From: a virus
Taxonomy: Duplodnaviria > Caudoviricetes
Virus record (IMG/VR): IMGVR_UViG_3300042258_000071
Span: 172,444 to 236,443 of that record
Strand: one strand, 5' to 3'
DNA: 64,000 nt
The position numbers and the translations under genes were made by a program. Shown here piece by piece: positions 2,086 through 43,829 of this stretch (the first letter of the stretch is position 1; each line of letters begins with the position of its first letter). The notes below the pieces were generated by a model. It saw only the letters and a program-made list of their open reading frames with translations. It was not told the origin of the DNA and ran no database searches.

Positions 2086-3273
2086 ATGAATACGGAAATG
2101 AGACTCAATCTCTTTGAGACTGTAAACGATTCAGCGATTGTTGATTTGGTTGTGGAGTTTGTTTATGACTGGAATGCCCTTGTTAGAAAGGAGCTCAGTG
2201 AACGTAATAACGTTATAAGACTGAGTGCGGTCGAATCAGGTTCGTTCAAATTATACATGAAATTCTGGGAAGATTTGAATGCAGAAGTAAAACCTCTGTT
2301 TCTATCAGATCGGGAAATCTCTGAAGCATCACTAATATCAGGTGACACCTCGATCAGTTCACTAGATACCAATGCCCCAGTTGAGTGTAATATTGGTAAC
2401 TCAAATGTTTATTCACAAAAGAATGGTGGGGACACCCCTTCTTTCTTCGATGGAGCAGGACGTAAACGCCTATCACCGACCTATCGGGTGAACTGGTTTG
2501 AAGATAATGTGATGCTTGATTATGTCGGTGGGATTCAGGTGGAATCTCAGTTTTCTTACATCGGGTTTGGGCGCATTGAGAAACTTGTTGTGTTCTCTGC
2601 TTTGGAAACATGCCCCCGCCACAATATCTTTAAAAATATGAGACAGGTTTACCAGGATTTGTTTCAGTTCATAGCCACTGAAATTTTCCCTCTCACTCAA
2701 AAAGTGTCTCTTGATGAAAACCCCGATGAAAGTATGAAATTAGAGAAAAATGCTAGTTGGCTTTATTGGGAAATCATGATGACGCATCTATTCAATAGTG
2801 AATTCCCAAAAGCTAGTAAAAATCTATGGTGGAAGCTACCTGAAGCTACCTCAAATCTTTTGACCAAATTTAAAATAACTGAGAAATACAAAGAGGTACT
2901 AAATTCTAAATATATAATCTTGCATAAACATATCTTTGACTTTCTCTCTCGCAAATATGGGATGATTGGATATTCTAACGGAGTAGGACTTTGTCAAATA
3001 TCTAAAGAAACTTGGCATAACTGCTTTCAGAATCCTCCGGAAAACATCACTATCCCTATTCCAGGATTTGGGGAAGTATCAGCACTGATGACGATCTATC
3101 GTTATGCTCAATATCGATGCAAGCCTTTCGGATTCAGAGCATGGCAAACCCCTCAGAAAGATGCTGTTCATTCTGTCTTAAAATGTCCTCATGGAAAAGA
3201 TCCTTTCGATCAAAAGAAGCGTCATGAGAAATATCGTACTGTAACAGAGAATGACATTGTCCCTATGGATTAA
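2086..3273 (+). CDS. hypothetical protein
   Basis: 395-aa ORF with AGGA RBS. Confidence 0.8.
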   Translation: MNTEMRLNLFETVNDSAIVDLVVEFVYDWNALVRKELSERNNVIRLSAVESGSFKLYMKFWEDLNAEVKPLFLSDREISEASLISGDTSISSLDTNAPVECNIGNSNVYSQKNGGDTPSFFDGAGRKRLSPTYRVNWFEDNVMLDYVGGIQVESQFSYIGFGRIEKLVVFSALETCPRHNIFKNMRQVYQDLFQFIATEIFPLTQKVSLDENPDESMKLEKNASWLYWEIMMTHLFNSEFPKASKNLWWKLPEATSNLLTKFKITEKYKEVLNSKYIILHKHIFDFLSRKYGMIGYSNGVGLCQISKETWHNCFQNPPENITIPIPGFGEVSALMTIYRYAQYRCKPFGFRAWQTPQKDAVHSVLKCPHGKDPFDQKKRHEKYRTVTENDIVPMD

Positions 3274-15720: not shown

Positions 15721-15735
15721 TATATTACTTCTATG
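15721..15735 (+). promoter_or_regulatory. early promoter TATATTAC-N5-TG
   Basis: Exact motif upstream of the ligase gene. Confidence 0.75.
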
Positions 15736-15831
15736 ATAGAGGTTGTACTATTATTTCATACATTTAAAATGATGAAATTAAAAAGTACCACATACCCATA
15801 TATTCGGTATCACTTTTAAAAGAGAGGTGTC

Positions 15832-19646: not shown

Positions 19647-20789
19647 ATGTTTTATCTCCTATATCCTCTTCTACGTCAATCTAACTTATACTCAGATACG
19701 ACAGCGAACTTCGGATATATCAATGATCATTTTCTACAAAGTATAAATGATTCAGATGGATCAGCCTCTCTTATTCTTATGGATCTTGTAGATATGGAAT
19801 TTAGAACAGGATATAGTCTTAAGACTTCACAGTTGCATCCTCTCTATGGAAATCTTTATAAGACTGTTAATCTTCAAAAACTACCCTCTGGAGATGCCAT
19901 CCTTGAAGTTGTACACTACAAAACCTCTCGCGGATACATGCCTTTCCGGGCGAAGTATCGAACCCAAAATGGGACCATGCCCGTACGATATGTATATGCA
20001 ACCAATCTTGAAACCATCATGGCTACCTTATTTGGACAAGATGGCTATATTGGAGTTAGTGATGTTTTAAGTGAAATTGCAGATTCTATAAATGCGTATG
20101 GTACTGATAATCAAGAAGATCTCATACCGTTTTCATTTTCAGCAGAATGCCTAACTTCACGTATCATTCACACTCTAGATCATATGAAATTTAGCAGAGA
20201 TGCACTATTTACAGGGAAGTCCCCCTTAGAAATTAAAGGGTATTCTGGATTTACAGAATATTTTCAAACAGGATACATTCCTTCAAATTTCATACACCAA
20301 GAACTCACCAAATCCCCCTTTCCAGGATTTGGATACCCAGACGCCCTAAAAGTCTCACCGCAAGATATGGGTGTGTTAATCGTTGAGGGTACATACGGAG
20401 AATTGGCTTATGTTGCCGATCTGCTTGAGAACTTATTCTTAACAGATATGGACCTGACATACATCGTCATGCAGGGTAAGATCAAACATCGTATCATCGA
20501 ATATTGCATCGATCGCTTTCGACACATCATCCGCCCACATACCGAGGATGACATTCGGTGTGATATGATTGCGACATATCTCACACAAACATTTATCCCC
20601 TCACAGCATCCAGACAAAGATCTTTTAGAATGTATTCATAAAGGGTTAGAGCTTCGTATTATCAAGACTTTTAATGATGAAGCTTTAATTGTTCTAACAG
20701 CTCCAGATTATAAACAAGAACCATTTGCTATCTACTACATTGATTTCATTGTACATACATTTATTTCACAATCTATAGGGTTCATATAA
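19647..20789 (+). CDS. hypothetical protein
   Basis: 380 aa; AGGAG RBS. Confidence 0.8.
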   Translation: MFYLLYPLLRQSNLYSDTTANFGYINDHFLQSINDSDGSASLILMDLVDMEFRTGYSLKTSQLHPLYGNLYKTVNLQKLPSGDAILEVVHYKTSRGYMPFRAKYRTQNGTMPVRYVYATNLETIMATLFGQDGYIGVSDVLSEIADSINAYGTDNQEDLIPFSFSAECLTSRIIHTLDHMKFSRDALFTGKSPLEIKGYSGFTEYFQTGYIPSNFIHQELTKSPFPGFGYPDALKVSPQDMGVLIVEGTYGELAYVADLLENLFLTDMDLTYIVMQGKIKHRIIEYCIDRFRHIIRPHTEDDIRCDMIATYLTQTFIPSQHPDKDLLECIHKGLELRIIKTFNDEALIVLTAPDYKQEPFAIYYIDFIVHTFISQSIGFI

Positions 20790-20859
20790 GAGAGGTGGGG
20801 ATTACCCACCTCTCTTATACTTATTTTTTGTCATGGTGAAGGTCAAAATCTATCATCTA

Positions 20860-23299: not shown

Positions 23300-23314
23300 T
23301 ATATTACTAGTATG
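23300..23314 (+). promoter_or_regulatory. early promoter TATATTAC-N5-TG
   Basis: Exact motif upstream of 23376. Confidence 0.75.
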
Positions 23315-23375
23315 AGCATAACACAATATCCTCATCAGGTAGGGTGTTAAATCTTAAAAATTAAAGGAGACTAAA

Positions 23376-24380
23376 ATGAGTAAAATTGAACAACCTCTAC
23401 CGACTTCCCAGCATATACAAACCCGTTCAAGTTTGTACTACGAACGGGGTAATTTAACAGATATATGTGTCGGCCATACCTGTGCCGAAACACTCGCTAC
23501 TGGATGGGGTGCAATTGCCCTTTCAGACGGGGAATTGTCGCCAAAGGCGACCATCATGGATGGTCCATATGCCATGGCGATTACAGCTGGTAATAATGGC
23601 ACAGCAACCGTCGAAGGGGATGATAAACCCAACACCTCAATCCTGGTTGCCCAGGGGGATGGAAGTAAGACTGTCTCCACGGGGCATGGTAATCTACACA
23701 TGGCCCAGGGTATTGGAGTCACTGCCAAGGCCAGTGGGGTTGGAAATGTTTTGGTTGCAGTAGGATCTGGGCATCGCCCAGAGACTGTATCCACGGCGAC
23801 GGCACGTGGGGACCAAAATACGGCTCTCACAGTGGGGGTAGGTTCGAGGGTAGAGATAATCGGGACCGGTGGGCTTGGCATCTGTAGGGGTAATAACACC
23901 AACAGCAGGACTAACGGAGATCGAGGAATGTCGATCTCCGTTGGTGATGAAGCAGAGGCACAGGCCGGGAATGGCGATTTCGTAACTGCCATCTCGAAGG
24001 GTATCCGTGCCAAGGCCACGGCGTATGGGCATGCACCCACCGCATTCGTGGCAGGGGAGTATTCGGAAGCCCTAAGTGCAGGGCCGTGGGCAGTGGCCAT
24101 CGCCACCGGTCCGTTCAGCTCCGCCCGCGTAAGAAGTAGTAATGGAGTGGCTATCTCAACCGGGGATGCCGGTAAAGTTCGCTCAACCTTCGAGGGTTCA
24201 GCAATATTCCTTATAGAACGAGATGAAGAATATGGTCGAGACATTGTGAATGTCTTTGCCGGCATCGTCGGTAAAGACGGTATCAAACCCGCAACATGGT
24301 ACACCCTCGTACAGGGTGTACTTACCGAAGTCTCAGACGAACCACTCCCCGACGACTCTGAAGACCACGAAACTATGTGA
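23376..24380 (+). CDS. Gly/Ala-rich beta-solenoid repeat protein
   Basis: ~9-aa A.A.G..S repeats; C-terminal GIVGKDGIKPATWYTL typical of this phage family; AAGGAG RBS. Confidence 0.8.
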   Translation: MSKIEQPLPTSQHIQTRSSLYYERGNLTDICVGHTCAETLATGWGAIALSDGELSPKATIMDGPYAMAITAGNNGTATVEGDDKPNTSILVAQGDGSKTVSTGHGNLHMAQGIGVTAKASGVGNVLVAVGSGHRPETVSTATARGDQNTALTVGVGSRVEIIGTGGLGICRGNNTNSRTNGDRGMSISVGDEAEAQAGNGDFVTAISKGIRAKATAYGHAPTAFVAGEYSEALSAGPWAVAIATGPFSSARVRSSNGVAISTGDAGKVRSTFEGSAIFLIERDEEYGRDIVNVFAGIVGKDGIKPATWYTLVQGVLTEVSDEPLPDDSEDHETM

Positions 24381-38720: not shown

Positions 38721-40328
38721 ATGTTTCTAACCCCAGACCTATTATTAGATTGTATAACAGTCTTATTTCACGATAATAGTGAGACGAATAAGAATATTGT
38801 TAAAGAAATTGTAACGATCTATGAAGGATCTATTGCTGCTGGAACAGGAAGTTCTGAACAGGATGCGGTTGTTGAATTATATGTTTGGATTATTAACCTT
38901 CTCTTAGACGATGGCCTTGATCGCACTGATGAAAATGATGTAAACAGATTTCTTATTAAAATCAAATCAAATCCTATCATGGAGAAACGACGAGAAATCT
39001 ATGATCTCCTTTCAAACTTGTTTACATCTAGAGAAACCCTATCTGAAGTTAAACTTGCTAAATGTTTTAATGCTATCCAAACTCGTCTTTTACATATTCG
39101 TATGAATAAGGTTAGTCGCATGTTTTTTGGTGGCGTTAATCGTGTTCAGGATATGGCGAATGTTGAAGATCAAAGTCGAGACCTTAAGAAATTAATTATA
39201 ACCATTAAAGAAGCCTTAGATGAAACCGAGAAATCATTATCCTCTTCAAGTGATGATGGTGCCATCGAGACCGTTTCATTTAACAATAAACAGAGTATGA
39301 AAAATGCTCTTAAGAAAAATAACGATCGAACAATTAGAGGGGTTATCAAGACAGGACTCCAAGGTCTTAATATGGCCTTTGGTAAAGCTGGAGGGCTGAT
39401 CTTAGGTGAAAGCGTTATTTTTAACGCACCCTCTTATCATGGTAAGTCTCTTATTCTCCAACTGGTCGCGATGTGGGCTGCTGTGTATAATACACCAGCA
39501 CCTTGTGATGGAAAGATGCCTCTCATCATACTCTTTTCATTAGAAAATGAAGCTTTTCAGAATTTCATCTTTATATCAAGTGTCATGTATTATCAGGCAA
39601 CTGGTAAAGAGATCGGAAATTTGGCTAAAGAAGAGGTTCAAGATGATCTTATTGATTGGGTGTATGATGAGTTTGAGAAGAATGGTTTTAAACTCGAAAT
39701 CATTCGTCAACTTCCTGACACCTTTGGATATGAAGAAATTGTTCAAATTATTAATTATAAAGAAAAGTCTGGATTCGTCATTCATTTATGCGTTATTGAC
39801 TATATTAATAAAATGCGTAAAGGGGCAAATGGTGATAAAAATGCATCTTCTGTTGGGAACCATCTTCTCATTAAAGAACTTTATAGTAAATTGTGTAACT
39901 ATTTTAAAACAAAAGGCATCACACTCGTCTCCGCACATCAGTTGAATCGAGATGCACTTAAGATAGGAAACATTGGTGGTAAACGTGAGGTTGTAAAATA
40001 TCTTAATGCAGATCATCTTGCAGAGAGTGTTGATGTCCAGCGTGAACCAGATGTACTGTTTTTCATGTATAAAGAATATAACTATGATGGTATTCCATTT
40101 CTAACAATGCGAATTGATAAACACCGTTATGTCAATGATACTCCAGATACCCATAAACATTTTGCATATCCTTTTACGAAACATGGTATCTTAGCTGATA
40201 TTAATGGTACACCTATGTTTACTCGTGATATTTACAATTATAAACCTAAAGATATGAGTCTCTTTCATGACAATATTGCCACTAATAAGCAAGCTCTTGA
40301 TCAAGCTTCTGCATCTGACATCTTCTAG
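38721..40328 (+). CDS. dnaB: DnaB-like replicative helicase
   Basis: TGLQGLN, APSYHGKS Walker A, FSLEN, CVIDY Walker B, SAHQLNR, KHR. Confidence 0.9.
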   Translation: MFLTPDLLLDCITVLFHDNSETNKNIVKEIVTIYEGSIAAGTGSSEQDAVVELYVWIINLLLDDGLDRTDENDVNRFLIKIKSNPIMEKRREIYDLLSNLFTSRETLSEVKLAKCFNAIQTRLLHIRMNKVSRMFFGGVNRVQDMANVEDQSRDLKKLIITIKEALDETEKSLSSSSDDGAIETVSFNNKQSMKNALKKNNDRTIRGVIKTGLQGLNMAFGKAGGLILGESVIFNAPSYHGKSLILQLVAMWAAVYNTPAPCDGKMPLIILFSLENEAFQNFIFISSVMYYQATGKEIGNLAKEEVQDDLIDWVYDEFEKNGFKLEIIRQLPDTFGYEEIVQIINYKEKSGFVIHLCVIDYINKMRKGANGDKNASSVGNHLLIKELYSKLCNYFKTKGITLVSAHQLNRDALKIGNIGGKREVVKYLNADHLAESVDVQREPDVLFFMYKEYNYDGIPFLTMRIDKHRYVNDTPDTHKHFAYPFTKHGILADINGTPMFTRDIYNYKPKDMSLFHDNIATNKQALDQASASDIF

Positions 40329-40437: not shown

Positions 40438-42210
40438 ATGGTGACATCGATTACTGCTGAAGGTATTTCTACTTCTAAATTTACCTTAAACGATGAAGAT
40501 GCTGTTGCAATTATTTCAGATCTTGAAGGTGCAACTGATCTCACACATAAGTTAGTATCTGCAGGGGCGGTATCAACCTATGTCACTCAGAAAGTTCTTC
40601 AGGTTACATCGGGTGGGAATGGTTCTTCTATTTCTGATGTGAATATGATTACAAAAGCCCCTATGGGAACTCTTAAACTTGGGGATGTTGGTCCTTTCCC
40701 TTTTATTGGTAAACTTAAAAACATTACGCACTGTAAAGGGGGTGTTTTTAGTCCATCCTCTGGATACATCACCTGTTCACATGATGCAACAACATCACTT
40801 GGAAATGCCGTACGATGTGATATTTTAGAGAGAGGTGTGCTCTTTAACTACCTAGGACCTGCAAACAAAATTACAAGTGCAACGCTTTTTTATGAACTCT
40901 TATATCCAAGACCCATCTCACATGTCATTTTGCATGTAGAACAGGTGGCAACAGATTGTGTTCCAAATGAGATCATCATCACGGTTAACAACACCTCATA
41001 TACAGTAGATCTTACAATGGCAGAAGGTTATGGAGGTGGGTACCATACAGTTACATATACCCTTCCAGATGGACCTGTTATTGTAACCGATCCATTAGCT
41101 TTTCATATTTCAAACATGTCTTCTGGGTCAACATATGGTCTTGGTGTCGATGTCTTGTTCTCAGATATTGGGGCTGCAACTTTTGTTATTAACAGTGGCA
41201 TCGATGTCAATATGTCTAACAAGGACGGTGTCATTAATCAATACCGAACAAACACCCCTATTAGTGTAAACACTGCTACTCTTGAAAATGATCATTGGTA
41301 TACACTCATGTTCAATTCTGTTACAAATCTCCCAGAACTACATGTCTTCACTCCAACTGTCGTAACTCCAAATCAACCAGATCGAAATGCGTATCCTTTA
41401 AAAGCCCTTTCTTTAGAACATCTGGGATATGGAACTGTTACTTCCACCTATCAGGCTGGGAATGTATATGGACTATATCAGGGTCATGATGGTGTGAGTG
41501 GCGGCCAGACAACCGTTCACATAAAAACCTTCACCTCCCCAATTTCTATTCGTAAGATTGATTATCAGGTTAACAGTGTTGCATTATCTGATATTGATTT
41601 TGCAGAGATCATTGAGACGACGTTAGAATGTCGTCTTGAAGACGATAGCGTCATAACGCTTTCAACGCAAGGTCCCAATCCTGCTCTGCCAAAGAAAGTT
41701 GTGAAACACAATCGACCTTCTACACAGACAGTCTATACTGGAACAGGTGGGCGGTATGCTTTAGATGTATCTGTTGTTGTTGAAGACTATACAGAACTTA
41801 AAATTAAACAGTTCACAATTACATCTACATCTACAAGTGTCACGATTAACCAACAAAATTCATCTCTTTGGAATCTTAAGGTTGGTATAAATGTCCCATG
41901 GTTTGATACGACTTTAAAGAAGTGGAATGACGACACTTCCAGGTTCTTTATCGGATATCTGAGTAAATCATCTCTCTCTGGAAATATTCTTTTTTCACCC
42001 TCAGCTATAAATTCTTTTGGAGACATATACCCAACTGGTTATAATACTTTGCTGGCCTCTGAGATCAGAGATGTTTTAAATCCTTTTTTTGTTATGCAAG
42101 ATCTTATCCCTATAACAAACGACGATGCTTCTATAGTTAAAGTATTATCTCCAAGTGTTCTTCAAATTGCATGTAACAACACCCCTCACCTTCGACTTAA
42201 GAGACTTTAA
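40438..42210 (+). CDS. putative virion structural/tail-associated protein
   Basis: Thr/Ser/Gly/Val-rich, beta-like composition; 590 aa. Confidence 0.55.
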   Translation: MVTSITAEGISTSKFTLNDEDAVAIISDLEGATDLTHKLVSAGAVSTYVTQKVLQVTSGGNGSSISDVNMITKAPMGTLKLGDVGPFPFIGKLKNITHCKGGVFSPSSGYITCSHDATTSLGNAVRCDILERGVLFNYLGPANKITSATLFYELLYPRPISHVILHVEQVATDCVPNEIIITVNNTSYTVDLTMAEGYGGGYHTVTYTLPDGPVIVTDPLAFHISNMSSGSTYGLGVDVLFSDIGAATFVINSGIDVNMSNKDGVINQYRTNTPISVNTATLENDHWYTLMFNSVTNLPELHVFTPTVVTPNQPDRNAYPLKALSLEHLGYGTVTSTYQAGNVYGLYQGHDGVSGGQTTVHIKTFTSPISIRKIDYQVNSVALSDIDFAEIIETTLECRLEDDSVITLSTQGPNPALPKKVVKHNRPSTQTVYTGTGGRYALDVSVVVEDYTELKIKQFTITSTSTSVTINQQNSSLWNLKVGINVPWFDTTLKKWNDDTSRFFIGYLSKSSLSGNILFSPSAINSFGDIYPTGYNTLLASEIRDVLNPFFVMQDLIPITNDDASIVKVLSPSVLQIACNNTPHLRLKRL

Positions 42211-42286
42211 ATTATCAGTAGGAGAGAGGGTGGGAGATCCCACCCTCTCTCTCTTATATTCGAATTTCTCAATTAAAAAATACATA

Positions 42287-42301
42287 TACATTACTTTAAT
42301 G
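42287..42301 (+). promoter_or_regulatory. early promoter TACATTAC-N5-TG
   Basis: Motif variant; same core as the chimallin promoter. Confidence 0.7.
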
Positions 42302-42526
42302 ATTCGACGTCAATTAAAAAATATAGTATTAAGTATGGTCATATAATGCACCACTTGGTGGCAGTGACCTCTCACTCTTAAAGTGTTGGAGAGATAAAGT
42401 GTAGCATCTTATCAATCTTTTAATAACCTGCTCAGGCCGACCTAAAACTATCACTTCTAAATCAAAGTGATATGTACTACTTTGACGAATCCCCTATAAG
42501 CAGTGGCATATTCTGCTTATATTTTT
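42301..42526 (+). ncRNA. candidate structured ncRNA or attenuator leader
   Basis: 5' end GATTCGACGTCAA pairs with TTGACGAATC (42482-91); several internal hairpins; closing hairpin 42495-42521 followed by TTTTT. Confidence 0.5.
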
Positions 42527-42550
42527 AACATCCTGTAAAAGGAAATTCTC

Positions 42551-43780
42551 ATGTTGTATTTGGTACCCAAACCTGAAGACAAAATCGTAAATCTCAACCA
42601 ATTCGTGGATCCGATTCTTCCGTATGATCCTACCTTCCGATTTAATAATCAAGAAAAAAATCGGTTTTACGGGGACCCAACCCGTATCAACACCAATGCT
42701 CTGTGTCGAGCAATCTGCGACAACAAGTCGCCGGATGCTATGAAGATCTCTTTAATCGTTAAGACTTTTAAACACCAGATTAGCAACCGGAAGGAAGTGG
42801 TTCCGATCATTTCCGAAGATGGCGGGAGCGATGTGTCGCACGCCACCGGCTATGCCACGGTAGTGGCCGATGCATCTGGGGGCCTTGTTCAAGGTCGACA
42901 AGTATGCCGGGTGGAACACTTCCAGACCCAACCCAATCGTACACATGCGTTGATTCACGCAAAGCCTGGGACCCTGGTGTCCTTTGGTATGTGCGATGGG
43001 CATCATCGTCGAATGATCGTTGTGTACCGCGTCGATGACATTGTCACTGTATTTGAAGACAGTCTGTTGGAACACCTTATCGCTGGAAATGACTGCCGTG
43101 ACATGCTAACAAAAGAACCGATGTGTCTGAATTTAACATTGGTAACGGCATACGATGCTGTTCATAACCATCAGCCTTTGAGCTATGAGCTTGCCGGTGA
43201 TGATGGCCAGCCCGTTGCTGACACTAAAAACTTGATAAATCTGACCCTCCAGAAATTGTCAGGGGAGTCAACAACACCGCTTGGTGTCGAATTCTTCTTC
43301 ACACCATTGTTCATCGCAGCCTCACGCAATCCAATGTACGACATCGACTGGGGAACTGCTGAATCATATTCTGCAGAACCTGAAGAATTCTTCGATGTCT
43401 TGCGGTCTCATCTTGCTGGGTATCGTGATGCTTCTAAGGTAAGTGGGCGGAAACGGATCTCTTTTCCTGTTCCGGTTCAAAATTGGGTCACCCTAAACAC
43501 GGTCACGCGAGAGATCGTTGTCGGCGTGGCTTTCAATCAGAAATTTGTATTACATCTAGTGGATGGGGTGTCTAAAGAACCGATCTTTGATCATCCGATC
43601 GCAATACAGACAAAACCTATCACAGGGGTCCTCCCTTGGCAACTTGTCAGGGATAATAAACTCGTCTTCGGAAAAACAAATTTCGACGAGCTTGAAACCC
43701 TCCTTCTCGAAAAGGGTGAACCCATTCATCCTGACACGGATGAACTTGTTATGTATCAAAAACTTGATACTCATGCCTAG
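42551..43780 (+). CDS. hypothetical early protein
   Basis: 409 aa; AAGGA RBS; GC-richer codon usage; flanked by its own promoter and terminator. Confidence 0.85.
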   Translation: MLYLVPKPEDKIVNLNQFVDPILPYDPTFRFNNQEKNRFYGDPTRINTNALCRAICDNKSPDAMKISLIVKTFKHQISNRKEVVPIISEDGGSDVSHATGYATVVADASGGLVQGRQVCRVEHFQTQPNRTHALIHAKPGTLVSFGMCDGHHRRMIVVYRVDDIVTVFEDSLLEHLIAGNDCRDMLTKEPMCLNLTLVTAYDAVHNHQPLSYELAGDDGQPVADTKNLINLTLQKLSGESTTPLGVEFFFTPLFIAASRNPMYDIDWGTAESYSAEPEEFFDVLRSHLAGYRDASKVSGRKRISFPVPVQNWVTLNTVTREIVVGVAFNQKFVLHLVDGVSKEPIFDHPIAIQTKPITGVLPWQLVRDNKLVFGKTNFDELETLLLEKGEPIHPDTDELVMYQKLDTHA

Positions 43781-43795
43781 TCCATAAACGTATAC

Positions 43796-43829
43796 ATAGA
43801 AGAGGGGAGCATCTGCTCCCCTCTTCTAT
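43796..43829. terminator. bidirectional terminator-like hairpin
   Basis: ATAGAAGAGGGGAGCA-TC-TGCTCCCCTCTTCTAT between convergent genes. Confidence 0.75.

Follow-up and report, generated by a model that had tools for sequence, protein, structure and literature searches.

Early promoters of the jumbo phage phiKZ are AT-rich and transcribed by the virion RNA polymerase (PMC8244752), and TATATTAC, listed as the phiKZ promoter, stands in the same register as the promoter consensus of 201phi2-1, TATATTACDWHDGTG (PMC7058600, Table 2). Short RNAs derived from 5' UTRs, which arise where transcription ends prematurely a short way past a promoter, have been described in both phages: 17 ncRNA candidates in phiKZ, some of them confirmed by northern blot (Putzeys et al., bioRxiv 10.1101/2023.10.13.562163), and eight of the 11 sRNAs of 201phi2-1 (PMC11512511). 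The class is recognized by a termination site in the 5' UTR and a dominant short RNA of less than 250 nt that has the same 5' end as the mRNA (bioRxiv 10.1101/2023.10.13.562163; PMC11512511). The locus described here resembles these RNAs in its phage type and in the order of its parts, with a promoter, fewer than 250 nt free of ORFs, a hairpin followed by a U-run, and then a gene, and it is similar in size to the 196-nt 5'UTR_gp40 RNA of phiKZ. It differs in that the phiKZ and 201phi2-1 ncRNAs rest on mapped transcript ends, 5' as well as 3', and on northern blots, whereas the element here is predicted from sequence; in that one published ncRNA is kept in position and fold across phiKZ, 201phi2-1, EL, and PA3, whereas this element is absent from all relatives found; and in having a hairpin that is atypical for the terminators of its genome. 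The original prediction took it for a stand-alone structured early RNA with its own terminator, or else for an attenuator or riboswitch. On balance, we judge it to be probably the 5' leader of the early mRNA of the 409-aa gene that follows it, an ordinary leader that has been expanded in this lineage.

The locus lies in a stretch of 64,000 nucleotides (hereafter the window; G000:C1:172444-236443) of an IMG/VR virus record of 236,443 bp with direct terminal repeats and 39% G+C. Judged by its genes, the source is an uncultured phiKZ-like jumbo phage, because the window encodes a divergent DnaB-type helicase (PF20307; divDNAB) at 38721-40328, a related contig carries a PhiKZ_MCP capsid gene, and the helicase is ~23% identical to helicases of 256 phage records, with jumbo phages among the matches listed. 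The 340-nt gap between a 590-aa and a 409-aa ORF contains the leader (Table 1), and, as had been predicted, the element sits just ahead of the ribosome-binding site of the 409-aa gene. The AlphaFold2 model of the 409-aa protein is confident (pLDDT 81.7), and no named fold match to it was found in PDB or BFVD. Residues 242-270 of the 409-aa protein are matched by 32 separate stretches of a 2,073-aa database protein (P0003), which points to a short repeat module common to the 409-aa protein and this giant repeat protein.

Table 1. Features of the leader and its flanking genes, in window coordinates.
Feature	Position	Strand	Details
590-aa ORF	40438-42210	+	Upstream gene; no Pfam or PHROG match
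Intrinsic terminator of the 590-aa gene	42221-42252	+	14-bp GC-rich stem, tetraloop, -28.5 kcal/mol, tail CTTATATT
A-rich upstream promoter part (tCAAT + A-run)	42269-42282	+	Copy 1 of the 14-nt direct repeat TCAATTAAAAAATA
Predicted early-promoter core TACATTAC	42287-42294	+	7/8 against the genome consensus TATATTAC (one mismatch); followed by the conserved T-N4-TGA
Predicted transcription start G	42301	+	G of the conserved TGA; placed from the promoter-matrix position, +/- a few nt
ORF-free 5' part of the leader (proposed multibranch 'self-closing' domain)	42301-42491	+	191 nt; fold not above chance
Copy 2 of the 14-nt direct repeat TCAATTAAAAAATA	42310-42323	+	41 nt beyond copy 1; not followed by a promoter core
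AU-rich hairpin + T5, possible weak or partial terminator	42495-42526	+	9-bp stem with 3 G-C pairs; loop of 9 nt; approximately -9 to -9.8 kcal/mol
Ribosome-binding site AAGGA	42539-42543	+	7 nt ahead of the ATG; equivalent AAGGAA in L002
409-aa early gene of unknown function	42551-43780	+	ATG at 42551; kept beside the divDNAB helicase block in related jumbo phages

We regard the predicted phiKZ-type early promoter at 42287-42294 as solid and real, lying well above chance. The 8-mers most enriched upstream of genes in this genome are TATATTAC and ATATTACT, and the motif reads in context tCAt, ~14 nt, (g/a)aTA, TATATTAC, T-N4-TGA. With 19 strong sites of the phage's own genome as the basis of a scoring matrix, about 31 sites score at least 17 bits, 30 of them on the + strand and most of them 20-300 nt upstream of an ORF; the site studied here, with its TGA at 42300-42302 and its core flanked by ctCAATtaaaaaata upstream and tttaaTGA downstream, reaches 24.2 bits and ranks 23rd among these ~31 credible sites. 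It shares with phiKZ-type early promoters seven of the eight core positions, the AT-rich upstream element, and the occurrence of multiple sites, nearly all on one strand and ahead of genes, and with the 201phi2-1 consensus a conserved TG ~5-6 nt downstream of the core; it departs from them in the one core mismatch and in a start that is here deduced from the motif. At the orthologous spot in the closest relative, L002, the promoter TATATTTC tataaTGATT scores 18.6 bits with the matrix of this genome and is the best site in 21 kb, where the runner-up has 4.5 bits and no other site exceeds 5 bits; L007 and L008 have ATATATTCTATTGA in common at the orthologous promoter position. Conservation of the promoter at the orthologous site is therefore clear in L002 and plausible in L007 and L008, with an ambiguous picture in L006. 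The motif from which a start at G42301 had been predicted is thus upheld by its score and by its conservation in L002, with the start position itself still read from the motif.

Between this start and the ATG lie 250 nt, compared with the 31-40 nt of most phiKZ 5' UTRs (PMC8244752). The claim that they hold no convincing ORF was borne out: no + strand ORF of at least 20 codons was found in 42301-42550, and the only short ones, of 11 aa (ATG 42346) and 18 aa (ATG 42471), stand behind neither a GGAG- nor an AAGGA-type site. On the minus strand, a 41-codon GTG ORF (42329-42454) was ruled out as a gene, having neither a ribosome-binding site nor a promoter. In the absence of conserved structure and of an ORF, and in a stability near that of shuffled sequence, the stretch resembles ordinary long 5' UTRs of bacteria and phages; it is unlike them in that no other predicted early promoter of the genome is followed by so long a leader without an ORF, the other long ones containing small ORFs, and in being about twice as long as its orthologues. 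Two exact copies of the 14-nt repeat TCAATTAAAAAATA occur in the window, against 0.14 expected.

The 191-nt domain had been proposed to close on itself through pairing of GATTCG(ACG)TCAA (42301-42313) with TTGACGAATC (42482-42491) and of TAGTAT (42324-29) with GTACTA (42474-79), around a set of inner hairpins. All of the listed pairings are present where they were placed, and RNAfold of 42301-42530 recovers four helices, namely the closing helix between the first 13 nt and 42482-42491 (pair probabilities 0.63-0.89) and, as robust hairpins, 42337-42369, 42449-42472, and 42495-42521; the remaining inner pairings have probabilities below 0.5. A selected architecture, however, does not emerge from comparison with dinucleotide shuffles, against which the folding energy of the domain 42301-42491 is no better than chance (z -1.33, 26/300 as stable). 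Adding the hairpin brings the domain to z -2.0 (6/300), and the whole leader including the hairpin is mildly stabler than shuffles (z about -2; 3-6 shuffles per 100-300). The antisense strand does better than the sense domain, at z -2.0 to -2.2, and therefore the fold signal is not strand-specific. Other early leaders of the same genome have z values of -5.2, -5.6, -3.8, -3.1, and -2.9, versus -1.95 for the leader studied here. As a duplex the closing helix amounts to -7.6 kcal/mol. When 13-mers were taken at 3,000 random genome positions, 58% of them had a partner at least as good in the 250 nt that follow, and the helix is also surpassed at several other predicted start sites. The self-closing RNA of the original prediction is not sustained by these comparisons, of which the one with dinucleotide shuffles gave for the domain essentially the result that had been named beforehand as refuting it, and the hairpins in the leader are most likely ordinary local structure without selected architecture.

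Relatives of the 409-aa protein comprise a moderately close one, P0002 (44% identity), and a handful at ~25-30%. Four syntenic relatives (L002, L006, L007, and L008) have the helicase, a 575-750-aa gene, a terminator, a promoter-like motif, a leader, and a ~400-aa gene, with the same terminator-then-promoter layout as here. Their orthologous leaders measure only ~90-130 nt and show neither a common fold nor a terminator-like element; RNAalifold on the five orthologous leaders gives 0 pairs, and the leader of L002 is less stable than its shuffles (z +1.1). That leader aligns weakly, and only to the middle and 3' part of the one studied here (global z 2.7; local score 32 versus 21.7 +/- 3.6), lacks the 3' partners of the predicted hairpins, and has no T-run. 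Covariation among the upstream regions of homologs had been put forward as a check on the structure; the homologous loci are without the element and so can offer none. The near-identical copies of the locus in three other assemblies do not differ from it at any position over 4-7 kb (100% identity), which leaves them without information on polymorphism or covariation.

Database searches agree with the view that the RNA belongs to no recognized Rfam family: cmscan against Rfam 15 with E up to 10 returned only noise, the best hits having 13-23 bits (E 0.16-9) where the gathering scores are 40-200. Neither a tRNA nor a tmRNA was detected in the region by ARAGORN. Blastn and tblastn of the region and of both flanking proteins against 50,697 phage records gave no match, and no further loci were found in IMG/VR and JGI metagenomes queried with the protein and with an alignment. 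Exact 19-33-nt words of the leader retrieved only chance 19-20-mers without flanking similarity from IMG/VR, JGI metagenomes, and GTDB genomes, and when the leader was compared with the genome it comes from and with the relatives, nhmmer and six-frame tblastn detected no paralogue, homologue, or coding remnant. An RNAduplex scan of the whole leader against all translation-initiation regions yielded long-range duplexes that are physically unrealistic; in a search with short words, which took its place, complementarity of the leader to other phage sequence was at shuffle level.

The hairpin at the end of the leader was predicted to be the RNA's own terminator. Both the 9-bp stem and the TTTTT are present, the T5 is clean, and the position is intergenic, but at about -9 kcal/mol the hairpin falls outside the terminator class of the genome. 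A genome-wide scan for hairpins followed by a T-run gives ~55 intergenic terminators at -14 kcal/mol or stronger, which are GC-rich, with stems of 11-20 bp and mostly tetraloops; most hairpins between -12 and -8 kcal/mol, the range into which 42495-42521 falls, lie inside genes, as expected by chance. The terminators of the genome are a family in sequence as well, with stems of the form (ATA)AGAGAGG(G/T)GGG ... CCC(A/C)CCTCTCT(TAT), tetraloops, and a CTTAT or TCTAT tail, as in the window at 42221-42252, 43796-43829, and 20785-20819. With this class the hairpin studied here has in common only the T-run and the word CTTAT in its 3' arm, a word found at 62 of 192 strong intergenic hairpin records and in only ~1-2% of hairpins inside genes. 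Its base, TATAAG/CTTATA, resembles that of the canonical terminators (TATAAGAG...CTCTTATA) without their GC-rich top. Because predicted intrinsic terminators of 201phi2-1 go down to -6.9 kcal/mol (PMC11512511), some termination at 42495-42526 is plausible, and the CTTAT word and the T5, together with these weak published terminators, are the reason for which we keep partial termination as a possibility.

How much termination occurs there separates the plain leader from a 5'UTR-derived sRNA, in which a substantial share of transcripts would stop at ~42524-42528, through conditional or partial premature termination as known from phiKZ and 201phi2-1, to leave an early RNA of ~225 nt, with read-through giving the mRNA; the short RNA may then be a by-product or act in trans. 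We consider this unlikely, though the strongest of the alternatives. The layout is that of the published phiKZ and 201phi2-1 class, the hairpin carries the terminator word of the genome and a T5, the ORF-free leader is the longest in the genome, and such an architecture is apparently used elsewhere in the same record, where a promoter, a canonical terminator, and a second promoter follow one another (G000 138613). Set against this are the weakness of the hairpin, with its large loop and few G-C pairs, unlike the ~55 canonical terminators; the leaders of the four relatives, with no terminator-like element; and a body without significant fold, conservation, or target complementarity within the phage genome. 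Strong termination without a second promoter would also shut off a conserved gene. A bolder version strikes us as decidedly improbable. In it, a lineage-specific early RNA of ~225 nt, transcribed from the virion-polymerase promoter, would be released where a reduced form of the terminator (TATAAG...CTTATA + U5) stops part of the transcripts, and would act in trans, for example by binding an RNA-binding protein of host or phage as its ligand or as a decoy, with read-through supplying the 409-aa protein. The riboswitch, or ligand- or protein-sensing attenuator, of the original prediction would have the 190-nt domain bind a ligand and thereby control the 42495-42521 hairpin and hence the 409-aa gene. 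Nothing favors it beyond the general arrangement, in which a hairpin and U-run come after a structured leader, and possibly a weak alternative pairing of AAAAATATA (42317-25) with TATATTTTT (42518-26), which consists of nine A-U pairs only; given a domain that folds at chance level, no significant Rfam family even at E up to 10, and the absence of the element from all four relatives that carry the same gene, we find it scarcely credible. In nucleus-forming phages, early and later transcription are physically apart from ribosomes. Such a separation, if it holds here, would make ribosome-coupled attenuation through the 18-codon uORF at 42471 implausible.

The extra ~120 nt might instead be functionless filler that has ended up by chance between a conserved promoter and its gene, left over from a small gene or terminator that decayed or from duplication or insertion at the locus. 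Several features invite this reading: the exact duplication of the 14-nt upstream element of the promoter, an alignment with L002 that covers only the leader's middle and 3' part, the hairpin base that looks like a canonical terminator shorn of its top, and the orphan character of the sequence. Useless sequence is, however, usually purged from phage genomes, no coding remnant is recognizable at the peptide level, and there is neither a target-site duplication nor any terminal repeat beyond the chance-level closing helix. We think filler improbable; it overlaps with the long-leader reading and does not exclude it.

The ordinary long leader, which we prefer, would work as follows. The 590-aa gene ends at a strong terminator, and therefore the 409-aa gene needs a promoter of its own. 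The virion RNA polymerase would read the phiKZ-type promoter, starting near G42301, and the RNA would cross ~250 nt of non-coding sequence to reach the ribosome-binding site and the ATG at 42551. The hairpin and T5 would probably be passed by most polymerases, and the extra sequence, which carries the duplicate of the promoter's A-rich element, would be specific to the lineage; we infer the start site, the read-through at the hairpin, and the early timing. A promoter kept at the orthologous site ahead of shorter, terminator-free leaders argues that its job is the expression of the 409-aa gene and not of a stand-alone sRNA. Counting against a plain leader, 250 nt without an ORF are unusual in so dense a genome. 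Of the stand-alone structured RNA first proposed, what stands is a promoter-driven, ORF-free stretch; its fold is at chance level, and the relatives point to the leader of a gene.

As it stands the leader has little significance, since phiKZ-like phages are already known to have both long leaders and short RNAs derived from 5' UTRs, and a special structure finds neither statistical nor comparative backing here. The more useful results are a promoter matrix and a terminator class for an uncultured jumbo phage, which together provide an in-genome yardstick for well-supported short transcription units such as that at G000 138613-138751, and an early promoter before a conserved ~400-aa gene by the helicase block that is clearly kept in the closest relative, with promoter-like motifs at the corresponding position in more distant ones.

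Several other leaders were noticed along the way. In L002, the orthologous leader contains at L002:9900-9919 the sequence AAGGAGGTGAT, which is perfectly complementary over 11 nt to the canonical 3' tail of 16S rRNA and is followed by a two-codon mini-ORF (ATG GAC TAA) ~80 nt upstream of the real start; no 16S-tail complement of this kind is present in the leader studied in the window. The L006 leader has TAAGGGAGGT in a hairpin loop. In the window, a 97-nt leader at 15735-15831 stands behind a strong early promoter without an ORF ahead of the next gene and forms three hairpins (z -3.1; 0/100 shuffles as stable). At G000:C1:138613-138751, 33.8 kb upstream of the window start, a promoter of 35.7 bits precedes ~85 ORF-free nt and a canonical terminator with a 17-bp stem (ATAAGAGAGTGTGGA...TCCACACTCTCTTAT), directly after which come a promoter-like TATGTTAC tttaaTGAT and then a gene; the leader has z -5.2 (0/100 shuffles as stable), and by these features the unit is a much better candidate for an early-promoter-driven short RNA than the leader studied here. 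Lastly, window 23314-23378 and G000:C1:154057-154121 are paralogous promoter-leader units with near-identical promoters, 62-nt leaders (z -2.9 and -1.6), a common hairpin (UAACACA...CAUCAGGUAG...UGUGUUA), and an identical ribosome-binding region AATTAAAGGAGACTAAAATG, and the pair has the look of an early gene cassette that was duplicated and has kept its 5' hairpin.
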